From a virus (lineage: Duplodnaviria > Caudoviricetes), in IMG/VR virus record IMGVR_UViG_3300008107_000043, positions 14,521 through 78,520 of that record: a stretch of 64,000 bases of DNA. One strand, 5' to 3'. Position numbers and translations under genes: made by a program. Below are positions 14,493 to 29,035 of the stretch, one piece after another; within the stretch, counting starts at the first letter, position 1; each line of letters opens with the position of its first letter. The notes beneath the pieces were generated by a model. That model had not been told where the DNA came from and did no database searches. It saw nothing but the letters and a program-made list of their open reading frames with translations.

Positions 14493-14762
14493 ATGAAGTA
14501 CAGAATTGATGCCAGGTATTGTTGGTATAATAAGGAAACACAAATTGTTCTAATGTACTTTATAAATCAAATTCCTTTTACTTTTGATGAACTTCCAGAT
14601 GACTCAATTTATGATCTGGAATTAATCAAATTAGCAGACACTGAAAGAAGATTTGAACCAGAGGATTTATACAGAACATCATTCTATTTGATTGATGAAG
14701 AGTGCCATCCTCTTATGTTTGAACTTGAACTGGAAAATCCAGAAATGTTGCCTGTTGATTAA
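14493..14762 (+). CDS. Hypothetical acidic protein
   Basis: 89-aa ORF between the two tRNAs, TAAATA at 14465. Confidence 0.7.
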   Translation: MKYRIDARYCWYNKETQIVLMYFINQIPFTFDELPDDSIYDLELIKLADTERRFEPEDLYRTSFYLIDEECHPLMFELELENPEMLPVD

Positions 14763-21608: not shown

Positions 21609-24600
21609 ATGTTAAACAAACAGACAACTTTAGATCTAAACGGTCCAATTCTATCATTTACTACAAATCCTGTTGGAGCAGCAACTACTAATGGTGGGTC
21701 TGCAACTTTTATAGGTATTGCAACCGCAACATTTCCCATACAAACCCCACCAAATCCTGCAATACCTACTGGATATATTTCTTACCGATGGTATGATCAA
21801 AATGGACCATTAACTGATGGTGCAAATGTAACTGGATCTGCAACTACAACATTAACTATTTCTAATGCAGTTAGTCCAACTGATCATAATAGACAATTTT
21901 ATTTAAATGCGGATTATATACCATCTGCATATGGAGAAAATCCAATTACAGTTGGTACTGCAAGATCAACTGGAAATGCAATAAATGACCCAATTGTATC
22001 TAGTAGTGCGGTTTTAACGGTCTATCCAATACTATCAGTAACAAGACAACCTGTTAGTAGTACTATTGGACAAAACTCAGATACGAGATTTGTTACTGAT
22101 GCATCAATTACAGATACTAGTCGAGGAAATATTTCTTATCAATGGCAATTAAATGGTTCTGATCTTTCAGACACTCTAACTATACAAGGTTCTAAAACAA
22201 AAGAACTTTTAATTTCTTTACCAAATATTGGGATTAATACTGTTAGAGCAAAAATTACTCATCCCACTGCTTCAAACTCTCCATTATATACAAATAATGC
22301 CAATCTTGATGTAGTTGCTCCTAGAAAAATTCTTAATGTCGAAGTAATTCGGGATGATAACAGTGCTGAGGCACTATTATATTCTTGGAATATTGTTACT
22401 CAAGGTCCATATACAATAAATCCAGACCAAGTACCGCCAGGAAGTATTCTTACATTTTATGCACCAGAACTAAGTATTGATGCATATATCGATATGTACG
22501 GAACTGCTGGTGCAAATTATGGAACTTTTGTTGGAGGAAGAGGTGGAGTATCTACAATCAGATTAACATTAAATAAAAATCAAGAATATGCTGTCACACC
22601 TCTTTCTCCAATTAAAAATGGTGGAGGTGTTTTTCTATATAAAAAAGCAAAATTAATTGCTGTTGTTGGTGGGGGAGGAAATGCGGGAAAAAATGGTAGT
22701 GGTGGTGATGGTGGTGGTGTTAACGTAGCAGGTCAAGATGGTAGTGGTGGTAGTAAAGGTGGAAGTCTAGGAACATTATCTCCAAATGGTATATTTGGTT
22801 CTACTGTTCAATTCGTAACACTTAAATCTGGAGATACTTTAGCAATTGCTCCCAACGGAGGTAGAGTACTGCCCTGCACTAAAGGAGAATATTGGGCCGC
22901 CCAAGGATTTTCTGCTTGTACTGATGTTGGAAATACAAAATATTATACACCTACTGCAGGAGTAAGTACAAATACAGCAACAATTACAAGAGGATATAAG
23001 CCAGGATATGGAATTACTGGCACTGCAGGACTAGGAATAAATTTTGGAGGCAATGGTGGCAGTGGTGCAACTGGAGGCAATGGTGGTAACGGTGGTGGTG
23101 GAGGAGGTGGAAGTGGATATAGTGATGGGTCTGTAATAATTACTTCTACGCAACAAGGTGGTAATGCTGGTCTTGGAAAAGTTGTAATTCGCGAATATGT
23201 ACCACCGCCACCACCACCACCGCCTCCACCACCACCGCCACCGCCATCTTGTCCTGCTCCATGGACAAAGATCTTAATGTCTGATGGAACTCTTAAGAAT
23301 GCTGGTGATTTAGTGGTTGGAGATATTCTCAAAACACAGCATAAAGATACCTTAGAATGGGGAGAGTATCCAATTACATATAAAAAAGTAAGTCCTTCAG
23401 AAAGATTAAAACTCACTTTTGAAGAGTCTAACTTTACTTGCTCTCCAACTCATAAAATGTATGTTGAGGGTAAAGGTTGGATATTAGTTACTGATATGGT
23501 AATTGGTGATGTTGTAAGTAACCAAAAATTATTGTCGGTAGAACCTGATGAAAGTGGTGATGTTATTGTTATTGAAGTTGATGAGGCATATACTTTTATT
23601 GGTGAAGGATTGTTATCTCGTACAGTGAAGATAGAATTAACAGAATCTCCACTGCCAATTTTTAATCAATTTCCAAAGATTTTGATGTCAGATGAGACTC
23701 AAAAAAATGCTAGAGATTTGAAAGTTGGTGATTTAATTAAAACTCAACATGAACATACTTTAGAATGGGGAGAGTATCCAATTACACATAATTCAACATT
23801 ACAGTCGGAAAGATTAAAACTTACTTTTGATAATGCTAAGGTTATTTTTTCTCCAACTCATAAAATGTATGTTGAAAATAAAGGTTGGATTAGAGTTTGT
23901 GATATGGTAATTGGTGATATTGTAAGTAATCAAAAATTAATAAGTGTGGAGAATGTTGAATATGGTGATGTTGTTTCAATTGAAGTTGATGACGCACATA
24001 CTTTTATTAGTGATGGATTATTATCGCACAATAGAAGAAATTCACCTCCACCACCGCCACCACCATTTACATTACCACGAACGCAGCAAGACCCCTTGTT
24101 AGCATTTGTGTCACCACCACCTCCTCCACCGCCACCAAAAGCACCGCCACCACCTCCTCCACCGCCACCAAAGCCACCCCCACCACCGCCGCCACCGCCG
24201 CCACCACCTCAGCTGGCACCATCTTGTCCTGCACCCTGGGCAAAGATATTAATGACTGACGGGACCCTTAAGAATGCAGGTGATCTAAAAGTTGGTGATT
24301 TAATAAAAACTCAAGATGAACACACTTTAGAATGGGGTGAATACTCTGTATTAAAAGTTTCTATCGTTCAAGAAGATAGATTTAAAATGAAATTTGACCA
24401 CAAAGATTTGGTCTGCTCAACATCTCATAAAATGTATGTTGAAAATAAAGGTTGGACTAGAGTTTGTGATATGGTAATTGGGGATATTATAAGTGGACAT
24501 ACCTTACTTGAAATTGATGATTATGAATATGGAGATGTCGTTGCAATTCAAATTAAGGGTGCTCATACTTATATCTGTGAAGGATTATTATCTCACAATT

Positions 24601-25073
24601 TAAAGATAGTTACTCCACCACCTCCTCCACCAGCACAACCTCCTCCACCACCACCATTTACATCCTGTCCTGCTCCATGGACAAAGATATTAATGGCAGA
24701 TGGAACTCAAAAGAATGCTGGAGACCTAAAAGTTGGTGATTTAATCAGAACTCGACATGAGCATACTTTAGAATGGGGTGAATACTTAATTGATTATGTT
24801 AAGCAAGTTGATTCTGAAAGATTGAAAATTATCTTTGATCATGTTGAATTTACTTGCTCACCTACTCACACATTTTATAGTGAAGAAAATGGTTGGATTT
24901 TAGCTTGTAGTTTAAAAATAGGTGATATTATTTCTGGACATACGATTATAAAAATTGAAAGTGCAGAACCTGGAAAGGTTGTTGCAATTCAAGTTGATGG
25001 TGGTCACACCTATATCTCAGAAAACTTATTATCTCACAATAAACTAGTTGCACCCCCACCAACAGTCAAATAA
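21609..25073 (+). CDS. Ig-like + glycine-rich protein with four tandem Hint (intein-like) domains joined by poly-proline linkers
   Basis: Two Ig-like repeats (ISYRW/ISYQWQLNG), Gly-rich block, then four 125-aa units with Hint blocks A (C-P-A-P-W-x-K-I-L-M-x-D-G), B (SxxH), F and G (LLSHN). Confidence 0.8.
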   Translation: MLNKQTTLDLNGPILSFTTNPVGAATTNGGSATFIGIATATFPIQTPPNPAIPTGYISYRWYDQNGPLTDGANVTGSATTTLTISNAVSPTDHNRQFYLNADYIPSAYGENPITVGTARSTGNAINDPIVSSSAVLTVYPILSVTRQPVSSTIGQNSDTRFVTDASITDTSRGNISYQWQLNGSDLSDTLTIQGSKTKELLISLPNIGINTVRAKITHPTASNSPLYTNNANLDVVAPRKILNVEVIRDDNSAEALLYSWNIVTQGPYTINPDQVPPGSILTFYAPELSIDAYIDMYGTAGANYGTFVGGRGGVSTIRLTLNKNQEYAVTPLSPIKNGGGVFLYKKAKLIAVVGGGGNAGKNGSGGDGGGVNVAGQDGSGGSKGGSLGTLSPNGIFGSTVQFVTLKSGDTLAIAPNGGRVLPCTKGEYWAAQGFSACTDVGNTKYYTPTAGVSTNTATITRGYKPGYGITGTAGLGINFGGNGGSGATGGNGGNGGGGGGGSGYSDGSVIITSTQQGGNAGLGKVVIREYVPPPPPPPPPPPPPPPSCPAPWTKILMSDGTLKNAGDLVVGDILKTQHKDTLEWGEYPITYKKVSPSERLKLTFEESNFTCSPTHKMYVEGKGWILVTDMVIGDVVSNQKLLSVEPDESGDVIVIEVDEAYTFIGEGLLSRTVKIELTESPLPIFNQFPKILMSDETQKNARDLKVGDLIKTQHEHTLEWGEYPITHNSTLQSERLKLTFDNAKVIFSPTHKMYVENKGWIRVCDMVIGDIVSNQKLISVENVEYGDVVSIEVDDAHTFISDGLLSHNRRNSPPPPPPPFTLPRTQQDPLLAFVSPPPPPPPPKAPPPPPPPPPKPPPPPPPPPPPPQLAPSCPAPWAKILMTDGTLKNAGDLKVGDLIKTQDEHTLEWGEYSVLKVSIVQEDRFKMKFDHKDLVCSTSHKMYVENKGWTRVCDMVIGDIISGHTLLEIDDYEYGDVVAIQIKGAHTYICEGLLSHNLKIVTPPPPPPAQPPPPPPFTSCPAPWTKILMADGTQKNAGDLKVGDLIRTRHEHTLEWGEYLIDYVKQVDSERLKIIFDHVEFTCSPTHTFYSEENGWILACSLKIGDIISGHTIIKIESAEPGKVVAIQVDGGHTYISENLLSHNKLVAPPPTVK
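23250..25040 (+). repeat. Four 375-nt Hint-domain repeats: 23250-23624, 23658-24032, 24225-24599, 24666-25040
   Basis: Shared KILM.D.T.KNA.DL.VGD..KT..E.TLEWGEY and H.MYVE.KGW...DM.IGD segments; CCN-rich linkers between them. Confidence 0.85.
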
Positions 25074-25077
25074 AAAT

Positions 25078-25647
25078 TCAATCGTTATAAACGGGAGCGG
25101 CATGTGGATCATAAGTCAAAAAAACGCTTAATGTCTGCCTAACGCCGCTCTCAACTTTTTTAACTCCATGTGTAAATTTTAAATCTGCTGGATGAACAAC
25201 TAGCATTCTTGGTTCTGGTTTAACTTCTATATTCAAATTTGGATAATATAGTTCTCCTCCAACAAAAGAACTATTAAAATAAAGAACACTTCCGTGCGAT
25301 CTCCAAGGAGATGCATTTGGAGTAACTCCATCTTGCTCAATATTATCTGCATGTGGAGTAAGTTCTACTTTATTTTCCCACCTAACAAATTGTGGATATT
25401 CTATAAAAAGTTTTTGGTCAGATATAGAAGTTTTCTCTACAACACTTCTAATTGATACAATTAACTTAATTAATTTTTCTCTAACTTCTTCTTCCTTAAT
25501 TGAAGAATAATATATGCATCTTTTGGACCAGTAATCTTCTGAACTTATATGTTGATCATATGAAGATTTATTTTCTTCTACCCAGTTTAAAAAATAATCA
25601 TTTTCTTCTTCTGTAATAAAATTTCTAATTACCAATGGATAAGACAT
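25078..25647 (-). CDS. 2OG-Fe(II) oxygenase, prolyl 4-hydroxylase-like
   Basis: VIRNFIT.EE N-terminus, HxD (PHADN), VLYFN..F.GGEL.YP, distal His (THGV) and Arg (GVRQTL). Confidence 0.8.
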   Translation of the reverse strand: MSYPLVIRNFITEEENDYFLNWVEENKSSYDQHISSEDYWSKRCIYYSSIKEEEVREKLIKLIVSIRSVVEKTSISDQKLFIEYPQFVRWENKVELTPHADNIEQDGVTPNASPWRSHGSVLYFNSSFVGGELYYPNLNIEVKPEPRMLVVHPADLKFTHGVKKVESGVRQTLSVFLTYDPHAAPVYND

Positions 25648-25728: not shown

Positions 25729-27825
25729 ATGGCAATTAAAAAAGCGTTTGTTATAAAAGACGGATTAGAAGTTAATTCCGACGTTCTTATTGTAAGCAGT
25801 CAAACTAAAAATGTTGGCATAGGTTCTACTATTCCGAGAGTAGAATTAGATCTACGTGGTAGGTTTATTGCAACAGATTCTTATCTAACAGGAATCTCAA
25901 CTGTTATAAACGAATTAAACGTAGGATCAAATGGAACGGTTCTTACAGCATTAGGTAGTGGTTCTGTTGGTGTAGGAACAGCACTGCCAAACTACTTATT
26001 AGATGTTCGTTCTTCAGTCTCTACAGGACAAACAGCACTCTATGTTCAAGGTGATTCAAATATTACTGGAAAGTTGGATATTGGGGGTAGTATATCCTTT
26101 AGTGGGTTTACTGCACTTAATGCCAATATCACTGGTATTGCAACAATTGGAACAGTACAAATATCTTCAGGTATTGTAACTGCTACAAGTACAAGTGGTG
26201 TTGTAACTTATTATGGTGATGGTTCTAAACTTACTAATGTTGCTGCTTCTTCTGCTGTCTATGCTATAAATTCTGGTATAGCAACTTATGCTACCTCTAG
26301 TGGTATTTCTAGTACTGCTACTTATGCTACTTCTAGTGGTATTGCTACTTATGCTACCAGAGCAGGAATATCAACTTATGCTACTAATGCTGGAGTAAGT
26401 ACCTATGCTACCTCTAGTGGTATAGCAACTTATGCTACTTCTAGTGGTATTTCTACTACTGCAACTTATGCTACCTCTAGTGGTATAGCAACTTATGCTA
26501 CTTCTAGTGGTATTGCTACTTATGCTACCAGAGCAGGAGTAAGTACCTATGCAACCTCTAGTGGTATTGCTACTTATGCTACCTCTAGTGGTATTTCTTC
26601 CACACTTACTGCAACCGCATCAGTTAATACTACTGGCATCATAACAGCATCATCATTCGTTGGAAATGGTTCTGGATTAACAAATTTACCAACAGTTTTT
26701 AGTGGTATTGCTACATCAGTTATAGGTGGTATTGCATCTGTTACACAATTAAATGTTTCTGGTGTTTCTACATTTACAAATGGACCTGTATTAGTCGGAG
26801 TAGCAACAGCAACAGGAACTGCATCACAACCACTTCAAGTAACTGGTGGTGCTTATGTAAGTGGTAATCTTGGAGTTGGCGTCACAAATCCACAAGAAAA
26901 ACTTCACATTTATGGAGGAAACGTTACTAGTCTTGAGATAACGGCAGATTCTGAACCAAACATTAATTTTAATACCACTGATGGTTTAAGAAACGCTACT
27001 TTATTCAATTCTTATGGTAGTGTAGGACTTGTTGGATATGGTCCATCATCCAATTATATTTTATATCATAATAATAGCAGTGGAGTTCTTAACAATCAAT
27101 ACACTTATTTCCAAGTAGCTGGACAGGAGGTATTAAGACTTGTACCCGGTACAGCACTTATTGGTTCTGGAACTTCAACAGGAACTGCATCACAAAAACT
27201 TCAAGTAACTGGTGGCGCTTATGTTTCCGGTAATTTTGGAATTGGGTCCACAAATCCATCTCAACCTCTACACGTTCAAGGTAATGCAAGAGTTACTGGA
27301 GGAATTTATGATTCCAATAATCAAATAGGTACTTCAGGACAAGTTTTACAATCTATTGGAACTGGTATAAGTTGGACAACATTTTCTGGTGGTGCTACAT
27401 TATCAAATGATACAACTACTAATGCATCATATTATCCAACATTCAGTTCTGCTACTTCTGGTACATATACTACAGCATATGTTTCTGATACTAAATGTAC
27501 ATTTAACCCATCAACGGGTACATTATCAGCAACTCAATTTACATCACTATCAGACGCAACTCAAAAAACTAACGTAAGACCTATAGAAAATCCAATTGAA
27601 ATTACAAAACAACTTGATGGAGTTAGGTTTGATTGGATAAATACCAATAAACCTTCACTTGGTCTGATTGCTCAAGAAGTTGAAAAAGTACTTCCAGAAC
27701 TCGTTGAAACTAATAGTGATGGTATTAAGTCAGTAAGTTATTCTAATATGGTTGGACTTTTAATTGAAGCAATCAAAGAACAACAAATTCGTATTGAAGA
27801 ACTGGAGAGAAAGTTAAATGTCTAG
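25729..27825 (+). CDS. Tail fibre protein with C-terminal peptidase S74 intramolecular chaperone
   Basis: VGIGST fibre motifs; TSLSD...KTNV..IENP...LDGVRFDW...GLIAQEVEKVLPELV...LLIEAIKEQQ is the S74 pattern. Confidence 0.85.
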   Translation: MAIKKAFVIKDGLEVNSDVLIVSSQTKNVGIGSTIPRVELDLRGRFIATDSYLTGISTVINELNVGSNGTVLTALGSGSVGVGTALPNYLLDVRSSVSTGQTALYVQGDSNITGKLDIGGSISFSGFTALNANITGIATIGTVQISSGIVTATSTSGVVTYYGDGSKLTNVAASSAVYAINSGIATYATSSGISSTATYATSSGIATYATRAGISTYATNAGVSTYATSSGIATYATSSGISTTATYATSSGIATYATSSGIATYATRAGVSTYATSSGIATYATSSGISSTLTATASVNTTGIITASSFVGNGSGLTNLPTVFSGIATSVIGGIASVTQLNVSGVSTFTNGPVLVGVATATGTASQPLQVTGGAYVSGNLGVGVTNPQEKLHIYGGNVTSLEITADSEPNINFNTTDGLRNATLFNSYGSVGLVGYGPSSNYILYHNNSSGVLNNQYTYFQVAGQEVLRLVPGTALIGSGTSTGTASQKLQVTGGAYVSGNFGIGSTNPSQPLHVQGNARVTGGIYDSNNQIGTSGQVLQSIGTGISWTTFSGGATLSNDTTTNASYYPTFSSATSGTYTTAYVSDTKCTFNPSTGTLSATQFTSLSDATQKTNVRPIENPIEITKQLDGVRFDWINTNKPSLGLIAQEVEKVLPELVETNSDGIKSVSYSNMVGLLIEAIKEQQIRIEELERKLNV
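26272..26597 (+). repeat. Tandem 27-nt coding repeat (ATYATSSGI and variants)
   Basis: About a dozen imperfect copies of GCAACTTATGCTACCTCTAGTGGTATT. Confidence 0.85.
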
Positions 27826-29035
27826 ACCCAATCAGTTTTTATCTCCGGAAGGTGATTTGGAAGATTATTTTGTAGATGAATATTGGTTAATTGACCAGTA
27901 TGTTGGTGATACTTTATGGGTTTGGGGTGGAAATAATTCAAATCAATCGGGATCATTGGGAGACAATACATCAGTCTCTAGATCTACTCCAGTTACTACA
28001 ATTGCGGGAGGAGCAAACTGGAAATCTGTTGCTGTTGGATATGGACATAAGTTTGGAATTAAAACTGATGGAACTTTGTGGGGTTGGGGGGCAGATTATG
28101 ATGCTATGTTGGGGACCAATGCCAGTAATTTGCTTGCAAGATCTACTCCAGTCACCACATTTGCAGGAGGAACCGACTGGAAACAAGTTTCTTGTGGTTA
28201 TTATTTTTCTGCAGCGATTAAAACTGATGGAACTCTATGGACTTGGGGAGCTAATACCGCTGGACAACTTGGAATTAATAGTACAATTAAGAAATGTACT
28301 CCAGTCACCACATTCGCAGGAGGAAACAACTGGAAACAACTTTCTTGTGGATATGCAAGAATAGCAGCAATCAAGACTGATGGAACTTTGTGGACTTGGG
28401 GAGTTGGTAATAGTGGAGAGATGGGAAGTAATACTGCAATAGATAGATCCACTCCAGTTACTACATTCGCGGGAGGAACCAACTGGAAACAAGTTGCTTG
28501 TGGAACTTATCATACTGCAGCAATCAAGACTGATGGAACTCTATGGACTTGGGGAAGTAATTTTGCATCACTAGGAGACAATACGGTAATCAATAGATCC
28601 ACTCCAGTCACTACATTCGCAGGAGGAACCAACTGGAAACAAGTTGCTTGTGGGTTTAGTTATACTGCAGCAATAAAAACTGATGGAACTCTATGGGGTT
28701 GGGGAAATAATAGTAATGGTCAACTAGGAGACAATACTTCAACCAGTAGATCCACTCCTGTCACCACATTTGTAGGAGGGACCAACTGGAAACAAGTTGC
28801 TGCTTCCAATAGCAGTTATCATACGGCAGCAATAAAAACTGATGGAACTCTATGGGCTTGGGGTGATAATGGATTTAGTGGTTCTGGTGGGATGATAGGA
28901 GACAACACAATATCCTCTAGACTCACTCCAGTTACAACATTTGCAGGAGGATCAAACTGGAAACAAGTTTTTGTGGGAAGGTCTCAAACTGCAGCAGTCA
29001 CATCAGGTACTGATCCCACCTACTTCATCTCATAA
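27818..29035 (+). CDS. RCC1/BLIP-II repeat beta-propeller protein 1 (7 repeats)
   Basis: Seven units of LW.WG...LG.N...STPVTTFAGGTNWKQV.CG..HTAAIKTDGT. Confidence 0.88.
   Translation: MSRPNQFLSPEGDLEDYFVDEYWLIDQYVGDTLWVWGGNNSNQSGSLGDNTSVSRSTPVTTIAGGANWKSVAVGYGHKFGIKTDGTLWGWGADYDAMLGTNASNLLARSTPVTTFAGGTDWKQVSCGYYFSAAIKTDGTLWTWGANTAGQLGINSTIKKCTPVTTFAGGNNWKQLSCGYARIAAIKTDGTLWTWGVGNSGEMGSNTAIDRSTPVTTFAGGTNWKQVACGTYHTAAIKTDGTLWTWGSNFASLGDNTVINRSTPVTTFAGGTNWKQVACGFSYTAAIKTDGTLWGWGNNSNGQLGDNTSTSRSTPVTTFVGGTNWKQVAASNSSYHTAAIKTDGTLWAWGDNGFSGSGGMIGDNTISSRLTPVTTFAGGSNWKQVFVGRSQTAAVTSGTDPTYFIS

Follow-up and report, generated by a model that had tools for sequence, protein, structure and literature searches.

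We examined a 64,000-nt stretch of viral DNA (the window; positions 14,521 to 78,520 of the IMG/VR record IMGVR_UViG_3300008107_000043, Duplodnaviria; Caudoviricetes), in which a single gene encodes a large protein ending in four tandem Hint domains, here called H1 to H4. The source, an uncultured freshwater cyanophage, is represented by a linear IMG/VR viral contig of 78.5 kb with an estimated completeness of 35%, and the guanine plus cytosine content is 33–42%. A megablast search of GenBank phages returned no DNA-level relatives, and the freshwater cyanomyovirus Synechococcus phage S-SRM01 shows 85% DNA identity over 37% of a 20-kb window query. The features of the gene and of its convergent neighbour are listed in Table 1.

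Table 1. Features of the four-Hint gene and the adjacent oxygenase gene, in window coordinates (aa, amino acids; +1 and −1, the residues directly after and before a Hint domain)
Feature	Position	Strand	Basis or remark
Whole open reading frame, 1154 aa plus stop, uninterrupted	21609..25073	+	Begins 11 nt past the stop of the upstream 1944-aa tail-fibre gene
Two tandem immunoglobulin (Ig)-like domains, aa ~10–238	21636..22322	+	AlphaFold2 model; Foldseek and VIA-align against tandem I-set Ig pairs
ALK/LTK-type glycine-rich domain, aa ~261–532	22389..23204	+	VIA-align, Atlas
15-Pro run and Ser547 (−1 residue of H1)	23202..23249	+	Starts after aa 531
H1, aa 548–672; Cys1 and SPTH present, Arg-Thr for terminal His-Asn, Tyr for His114	23250..23624	+	Alignment
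H1–H2 linker VKIELTESPLP, no Pro run	23625..23657	+	Identical in orthologue L005
H2, aa 684–808; IFNQ for CPAP (no Cys1), SPTH, His114 and His-Asn kept; +1 Arg	23658..24032	+	Alignment
64-aa Pro-rich linker with conserved non-Pro island (F-x-LPRTQQDPLLAFVS)	24033..24224	+	Sequence
H3, aa 873–997, complete; Cys1, STSH, His-Asn; +1 Leu, +2 Lys	24225..24599	+	Alignment
22-aa Pro-rich linker LKIVTPPPPPPAQPPPPPPFTS	24600..24665	+	Sequence
H4, aa 1020–1144, complete; Cys1, SPTH, His-Asn; +1 Lys	24666..25040	+	Alignment, AlphaFold2, Foldseek
10-aa tail KLVAPPPTVK	25041..25070	+	Sequence
2-Oxoglutarate-Fe(II) oxygenase, 189 aa, convergent, 4 nt past the Hint gene stop	25078..25647	−	PF13640, 5.6e-7

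The four repeats align without gaps over 125 residues, with mutual identities of 55–66% in protein and 65–75% in DNA. Searching the contig with H4 returned exactly four matches, all in this open reading frame (ORF) and with E-values from 7.6e-87 to 2.3e-45, so chance is excluded. A sequence-only reading of the window had proposed four tandem Hint domains with Pro tracts, each of 125 residues and without an endonuclease. This layout was borne out, including the 15-Pro run, the 64-residue linker, the linker LKIVTPPPPPPAQPPPPPPFTS and the terminal KLVAPPPTVK, and a domain of 125 residues has no space for an endonuclease. The Pro runs use mixed CCA, CCG and CCT codons. The residues that the reading had picked out in H3 and H4 are present in the sequence: both domains have Cys1, SxxH and His-Asn at the end, with Leu after H3 and Lys after H4. 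No repeat is followed by Ser, Thr or Cys, the +1 residues of H1 to H4 being Val, Arg, Leu and Lys.

The AlphaFold2 (AF2) model of H4 is an all-β domain with a mean predicted local distance difference test score (pLDDT) of 97.7 and a predicted template modelling score of 0.88. Foldseek returned 62 matches in the PDB at E ≤ 0.001, headed by BIL2, a bacterial intein-like (BIL) domain of Tetrahymena BUBL1 (6y75/6tmm; E 1e-10, query-normalised template modelling score, TMq, 0.88–0.89). The C. thermocellum BIL (2lwy; TMq 0.89, E 7.6e-9), the gp41-1 mini-intein (6qaz; TMq 0.81), DnaB and RecA inteins and hedgehog (1at0) were also matched, and a sequence profile search of the PDB gave the same entries. 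Two Pfam families matched the ORF above their cut-offs, Hom_end_hint at 8.7e-12 (45.9 bits against 32.1) and Intein_splicing at 1.6e-9 (38.2 bits against 35.8), and PF07591 (PT-HINT) did not match the window protein at E ≤ 1. We conclude that the repeats are Hint domains, and the BIL-type fold proposed from the sequence agrees with the model, BIL2 and the C. thermocellum BIL both reaching a TMq of 0.89. Every testable property of A-type BILs is found in the window domains. Besides the Hint fold, with its intein, BIL and hedgehog matches, these are an N-terminal nucleophile with a block-B (T/S)xxH motif (Cys1 in H1, H3 and H4, not H2; SxxH in all four), a terminal His-Asn (H2, H3 and H4 end in SHN, H1 in SRT), no Ser, Thr or Cys at +1, and a location in a variable region of a non-conserved protein, the C-terminal extension being missing from the homologues L008, L009 and P-TIM68 and its linkers being hypervariable.

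H1 and H2 have each lost catalytic residues, H1 at the near-invariant His114 and at His124 and Asn125, and H2 at Cys1-Pro2-Ala3-Pro4. These losses are confined to the internal junction that the two domains share, which is the only junction without a Pro-rich segment, and the same defects are present in orthologous contigs. As the losses are complementary, H1, the linker and H2 look like one excision unit, in which H1 would supply the site of thioester formation and H2 that of Asn cyclisation. The complementary decay also suggests that catalytic residues persist only at borders between a Hint and a Pro-rich segment.

The window domains belong to a sharply defined clade. A word-indexed search with residues 540–1154 found 44 proteins. 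When 1.84 billion representatives were searched exhaustively with a profile, 9145 matched at E ≤ 1e-3, of which 931 reached ≤ 1e-10 and 176 reached ≤ 1e-30. IMG/VR holds 234 confirmed stretches with a clade Hint, and the IMG/VR locus counts reported here cover the best 80 of the 234. Members share a C-P-[ADS]-P start, T-x-H-E, A-H-T-Y and an LLSHN end, and always lie in low-complexity flanks that are Pro-, Arg-, Ala/Lys- or Thr-rich. Their host proteins are otherwise unrelated and structural-looking, and include a giant phrog_358/DUF4815 protein, tape-measure-like proteins, and Arg-rich and Ala/Lys-rich proteins. A PHROGs search on nine Hint-bearing host proteins gave nothing useful for six of them; PF07591 is precomputed on several clade members. 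A search of NCBIfam was likewise uninformative. The clade is common in uncultured aquatic phages and essentially confined to uncultured viruses, with 7 loci among 185,579 species genomes, five from metagenome-assembled genomes and two from Sphingomonas isolate records.

Most clade proteins carry a single Hint. At the 80 IMG/VR loci, 72 ORFs have one, four have two and four have four, the last being orthologues, and more than 100 residues follow the last Hint in 55 loci. In a 188-protein set, 179 have a clade unit (one unit in 165, two in 13, and four in the window protein only). Because many metagenomic proteins are fragments, these Hint-per-protein counts are lower bounds. The sequence-only reading had taken the protein to be unusual, which holds for the four-Hint/poly-Pro layout, found only in this phage lineage, but not for the Hint domain itself, which is one of a large and mostly single-Hint clade.

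Conservation was counted over clade units of at least 90 bits (28 of 223 fell below this), with the window protein set aside. Of 168 assessable units, 167 have Cys1, and 189 of 190 end in His-Asn. Lys occupies +1 in 152 of 190 units and Ser, Thr or Cys in only two, and 188 of 190 have a Lys somewhere within +1 to +4. A stricter recount gave 181/183 for +1 to +4; the five four-residue windows that come next gave 27/178, 17/172, 26/168, 12/164 and 24/160, so that Lys occurs in 7–15% of these control windows. Gly, Ser and Thr predominate at −1. In an alignment of the four window repeats with 21 homologous domains (alignment A1), Ser65 and His68 of SxxH are invariant, at a mean column identity of 52%. 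In the window protein, Lys follows H4 (+1), H3 (+2) and the dead C-terminal end of H1 (+2). The junction after H2 stands alone in two respects: it has no such Lys, and its Cys and Asn come from different Hint folds.

Several other arrangements were seen among the matched proteins. Two metagenomic proteins match the 2056-position profile phrog_358: P0006 covers positions 8–1116, with its Hint after that part, and P0007 covers positions 1377–2055, with its Hint near the N-terminus, so that a phrog_358-type giant protein looks as if it were divided near Hint domains. Trans-ligation between two separately encoded Hint-bearing proteins, which this pair suggested, was rejected within the 3-kb flanks covered, where none of the 80 IMG/VR loci had two Hint-bearing ORFs. 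In P0019, P0039 and P0154 a clade Hint and a Gly run are followed by a different Hint-like module (CVALES... to ...ILHHN). Six small Arg-rich proteins (P0049, P0051, P0094, P0103, P0104 and P0111) have an insert of ~35 residues after T-x-H-E, because of which HMMER reports their Hint as two stretches. P0098, P0156 and P0167 carry arrays of three to five Hints of a distant type (CF[LV]xGT ... VHN), and the array of P0167 is head-to-tail, with the Cys of the next Hint at +1 or no more than three residues away. Tandem Hint arrays are thus not limited to the phage clade; these three proteins are of another Hint type and were not counted as relatives.

The four-Hint architecture is present in the window and in five independent IMG/VR contigs (L005–L007, and two more in L019 and L021), and an assembly artefact was rejected as its source on that ground. 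In L005–L007 the gene is 92% identical and has all four Hints. Against L005, amino acid identity is 95–99% for the Hints and 93% for the body that precedes them. The ratio of non-synonymous to synonymous substitution rates (dN/dS), taken from this one sequence pair with 5–18 substitutions per Hint, is 0.09 for H1, 0.36 for H2 (4 synonymous and 6 non-synonymous changes), 0.06 for H3, 0.09 for H4 and 0.24 for the body. The 64-residue linker has 81% amino acid identity and two indels (8 and 5 residues), and the 22-residue linker has 59% identity and a dN/dS of 1.29. All four Hints are under purifying selection, and the linkers evolve fast.

A maximum-likelihood tree was built from 29 of the 188 proteins, using domains with a profile start ≤ 3, an end ≥ 123 and ≥ 90 bits, a filter that dropped H2 of the window protein. 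In this tree H1, H3 and H4 are monophyletic (93/93) and lie near the first Hint of P0002 and P0050, which have two Hints; P0014 has one. H4 had been considered as an orthologue of the second Hint in two-Hint relatives, with which it shares a KLVAP flank, but the tree instead groups it with H1 and H3. Both Hints are sisters in at least five two-Hint proteins (P0053, P0054, P0048, P0052 and P0004, the last with P0037). Sister Hints in most two-Hint proteins indicate that intragenic duplication happened repeatedly.

The body shows what the extension was added to. Its tandem Ig part best matches 2iep_B among the matches quoted (Z 13.3, 184 residues aligned; VIA-align), and its Gly-rich domain resembles the glycine-rich domain of human ALK (7ls0_C, Z 11.2, root mean square deviation 3.5, 174 residues aligned; 7nx3_A, Z 11.0). 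An independent Atlas search led from the Gly-rich domain to viral PF12810/Gly_rich_2 clusters, while a Pfam hidden Markov model search of residues 1–547 gave no family at E ≤ 1, PF12810 included; the likeness to ALK/LTK glycine-rich domains is thus one of fold and not of the PF12810 profile. The same residues match phrog_24848, of unknown function, at 4e-126. Their AF2 model has a pLDDT of 73.7, with residues 391–444 and 462–484 below 50. The Ig-like and Gly-rich domains that the sequence-only reading had placed before the Hints agree with both the model and the structural matches. More distant body homologues, L008 and L009, stop directly after the Gly-rich domain, without poly-Pro or Hint. 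So does the Hint-less, 564-residue P-TIM68 protein AIR93406, whose gene directly follows one for a ‘putative fiber protein’. Since these relatives end after the Gly-rich domain, the body is complete as a protein in its own right, and cleavage on the N-terminal side of H1 would restore this body-only form.

The gene stands among tail-fibre genes. The upstream 1944-residue ORF matches tail-fibre PHROGs (phrog_529, E 0), and downstream ORF 25729–27825 (+ strand; 698 residues) matches baseplate-wedge and tail-fibre families in PHROGs. The latter is a tail-fibre-like protein with a long series of near-identical ‘SSGIATYAT / RAGVSTYAT’ repeats, and many tail-fibre PHROGs match its C-terminal ~100–160 residues, which we read as S74-type, resembling an intramolecular chaperone. 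Its stop overlaps the start of ORF 27818–29035 (+ strand), a 405-residue RCC1-repeat protein (phrog_7220, 9e-61). In T-even phages gp38 is encoded after gp37, and here a Gly-rich, adhesin-like gene comes after a big fibre gene. Gene order suggests that the four-Hint protein is probably a tail-fibre-associated virion protein, and the location between tail-fibre genes supports the sequence-only reading on this point, virion membership being taken from synteny. An antisense ORF at 22943–23416 (− strand, 157 residues) with Gly and Pro runs mirrors the coding DNA of the Gly-rich and poly-Pro parts and is almost certainly not a gene.

The oxygenase that converges on the Hint gene has prolyl 3-hydroxylase 1 (2e-4) and bacterial prolyl 4-hydroxylases (0.044–0.049) as its best PDB sequence matches, so that a candidate prolyl hydroxylase lies next to a protein whose Pro runs total more than 60 residues. 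That it is part of the Hint system is only a lead. Of 100 loci searched by tblastn, 8 have the oxygenase at this position; these 8 overlap on 5 contigs and are all orthologues of the Hint gene, and the remaining 92 lack it. The idea that the Hint clade and the oxygenase are generally linked was therefore rejected. The contig has two PF13640 genes, so the adjacency may be due to chance. In P-TIM68, the 187-residue gene downstream was considered as a counterpart and proved unrelated.

We consider an autoprocessing array of the A-type BIL kind to be the most likely function of the Hints, with somewhat better than even confidence. A lineage-specific C-terminal extension, made of Pro-rich spacers and four BIL-type Hints, has been added to the functional Ig–Ig–Gly-rich body (residues 1–531). 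The peptide bonds preceding Cys548, Cys873 and Cys1020 would be converted to thioesters by an N–S acyl shift, helped by the SxxH His, and the bonds following Asn808, Asn997 and Asn1144 would be cut by succinimide formation. The Hint material would then leave as three pieces (H1–linker–H2, of 261 residues, H3 and H4), and the exteins would be the 547-residue body with its Pro15 tail, two Pro-rich peptides of 64 and 22 residues, and the 10-residue tail. Canonical splicing is impossible because there is no +1 Ser, Thr or Cys, and the thioesters would instead have to react with water, with a thiol or with an amine. An amine of the downstream segment, whether the near-invariant Lys or the new α-amine, would give a religated protein of 643 residues with a Pro-rich tail of ~111 residues (residues 532–547 plus the 64-, 22- and 10-residue pieces). 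Otherwise, the body would simply be released. Catalysis and products are deduced here from the conserved catalytic residues and from known Hint chemistry. A-type BILs are reported to cleave at either end and to lie in variable regions of non-conserved proteins, in keeping with this reading. None of the three outcomes that the sequence-only reading had proposed for the array (release of poly-Pro peptides, ligation into one tail, covalent attachment to other molecules) was contradicted by the analysis.

Several points weigh against this reading. According to PMC7765530 / PMC8616854, A-type BILs cleave but are unable to ligate. By analogy with such cleavage without ligation, religation here is uncertain, and an extension that is merely cut off has no obvious reason to be kept, let alone in four copies. 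In H3, Asp replaces the near-invariant His31 of alignment A1, and there is no Lys at +1 to +4 after H2 (RRNS). Purifying selection on the Hints is read from few substitutions, and the place of the protein in the virion, which is deduced from gene order, is likewise a step in the argument. The clade is also missing from isolates, as 50,697 GenBank phage records gave one distant match (33.6% identity). On the other side, the near-invariant downstream Lys makes an amine-directed resolution in cis attractive, and its absence at the end of the H1–H2 unit is what would be expected if Lys serves the ligation step.

A bolder form of the autoprocessing model, which we regard as doubtful but possible, is that the phage clade performs a Lys-directed ‘isopeptide splicing’. 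Here, the Lys at +1 to +4 would attack the Cys1 thioester, Asn cyclisation would then free the Hint, and the flanks would be joined by a branched isopeptide without ATP. In the window protein, three such units could stitch Pro-rich segments in the polyproline II (PPII) conformation onto the gp38-like body or onto a neighbouring fibre protein, giving a covalent polyproline tail. The length of this tail could change by duplication of Hint-plus-linker units, and its prolines may be a substrate of the neighbouring prolyl-hydroxylase-like oxygenase.

The acceptor of the thioesters might also lie outside the chain. We think it unlikely that the protein is a conjugation platform, in which the Hints would charge the upstream C-termini as thioesters for transfer to a Lys or N-terminus of another virion protein, such as the fibre encoded upstream, or of a host surface molecule. 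The adhesin-like body would thereby become covalently attached, in the manner of the ATP-independent conjugation of a ubiquitin-like domain by BIL2, and the proposal has the merit of explaining selection on an otherwise dispensable extension. Three thioester-forming Hints are intact at their N-terminal junctions, and the best structural match, BIL2, is reported in PMC7765530 / PMC8616854 to form a Lys(ε-NH2)–C-terminus isopeptide and to conjugate ubl4 to different substrates. However, structural likeness does not carry function, no candidate acceptor was identified, and the Lys of the clade lies in cis directly after the Hint, which favours an intramolecular reaction; the large domains that flank a single Hint on both sides in most family members (at 55 of the 80 IMG/VR loci, more than 100 residues come after the last Hint) fit cleavage or religation as well.

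Two further explanations give the phage either no benefit or no chemistry. Were the Hints selfish or neutral passengers, they would be endonuclease-free intein-like elements that spread and duplicate in the low-complexity linker DNA of phage structural genes and are tolerated through self-removal. One Hint clade in unrelated host proteins, always with low-complexity flanks, the existence of Hint-less orthologues and recurrent intragenic duplication are all compatible with this. We nonetheless hold it to be quite unlikely, as the domains have neither a homing endonuclease nor a +1 nucleophile and form a terminal add-on with poly-Pro rather than sitting in a conserved site. With only 10 residues after H4, there is no host function for the excision of a passenger to restore, and passengers would hardly be expected to be better conserved than the body or to be followed, outside the excised element, by a conserved Lys. 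The Hints could alternatively stay in the protein as non-catalytic beads, that is, as folded spacer or binding modules on rigid polyproline stalks whose catalytic-looking residues are relics. H1 and H2 have each lost catalytic residues yet remain under purifying selection, and a Pro-rich PPII stalk with globular beads would be a plausible fibre decoration. The near-complete conservation of Cys1 and His-Asn, in a clade whose other positions vary, and the restriction of the H1 and H2 losses to one internal junction make this very improbable. The autoprocessing array thus remains the reading that we prefer.

Hint domains underlie inteins, hedgehog signalling and much of protein engineering, and to our knowledge no other widespread protein module forms and breaks peptide bonds without cofactors. 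A sharply defined Hint clade that has kept its catalytic residues and a Lys points to a post-translational step in virion maturation, one that is unstudied because the sequenced isolates searched lack the clade. If the Lys is the nucleophile, these domains would be small (125 residues here), natural, ATP-free isopeptide ligases, which would be useful tools, and phages would have a new means of assembling or cross-linking fibres. For testing this, the four-Hint protein is the most suitable, as it offers three independent junction types in one chain and a natural ‘split-function’ pair in H1–H2.

The sequence-only reading knew of no described phage protein with this layout. Our full-text literature search agrees, as it turned up neither a paper that places BIL or Hint domains in phage virion proteins nor one that describes Hint/poly-Pro arrays, but the multi-BIL BUBL loci of ciliates are a precedent in principle. 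These loci reportedly hold several BILs alternating with ubiquitin-like domains. In the portions retrieved, the phage papers among PMC5259590, PMC2677866, PMC8616854, PMC3556154 and PMC7765530 deal only with classical inteins in terminase or replication genes.

Compared with inteins, the window Hints are closest to mini-inteins such as the cyanophage-like gp41-1 (6qaz), with which they share the fold (TMq 0.81), the 125–128-residue class, Cys1 and the terminal Asn. Inteins need a +1 Cys, Ser or Thr and a conserved site; the window Hints have neither, and homologues that lack the Hints have no matching C-extein with which contiguous exteins could be defined. In addition, gp41-1 is naturally split. 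PT-HINT modules (PF07591) resemble the array in placing a Hint near the C-terminus of a large modular protein, whereas the window protein has no toxin domain and lies in a phage tail-fibre context. As no toxin follows the Hints, only KLVAPPPTVK coming after H4, they are not PT-HINT modules. The S74, or intramolecular chaperone, domains of tail fibres would be a functional analogue, being C-terminal fibre modules that remove themselves after their job, and several clade members, as we read their sequences, end in an SDI-x-LK-x-NI-like motif after the Hint. S74 domains use a Ser-Lys dyad, and their fold and chemistry are unrelated to the Cys thioester and Asn cyclisation predicted for the window Hints.

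The likeness to A-type BILs (Amitai 2003, Dassa 2004; C. thermocellum 2lwy) extends from the Hint fold, Cys1, block-B His and terminal His-Asn to the absence of both a +1 Ser, Thr or Cys and an endonuclease, and to a location in a variable part of a non-essential protein. The window Hints differ in lying in phage structural-gene clusters, whereas BILs are found in bacterial secreted proteins, and in their clade signature, near-invariant Lys at +1 to +4, four copies and Pro-rich spacers. The BUBL proteins provide the best structural and sequence match; they too lack a canonical +1 nucleophile, and a Lys amine is the acceptor reported for BIL2, which according to PMC7765530 / PMC8616854 lies in a polyubiquitin-like locus between ubl4 and ubl5. 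In both systems BILs are repeated along one chain, but the phage spacers are low-complexity poly-Pro peptides of 10–64 residues and not ubiquitin-like folds, the host is a bacteriophage, the identity is 23%, and the phage domains are known from sequence and model. The window protein is therefore not a member of the BUBL polyproteins, yet it is akin to them in principle and may work like one.

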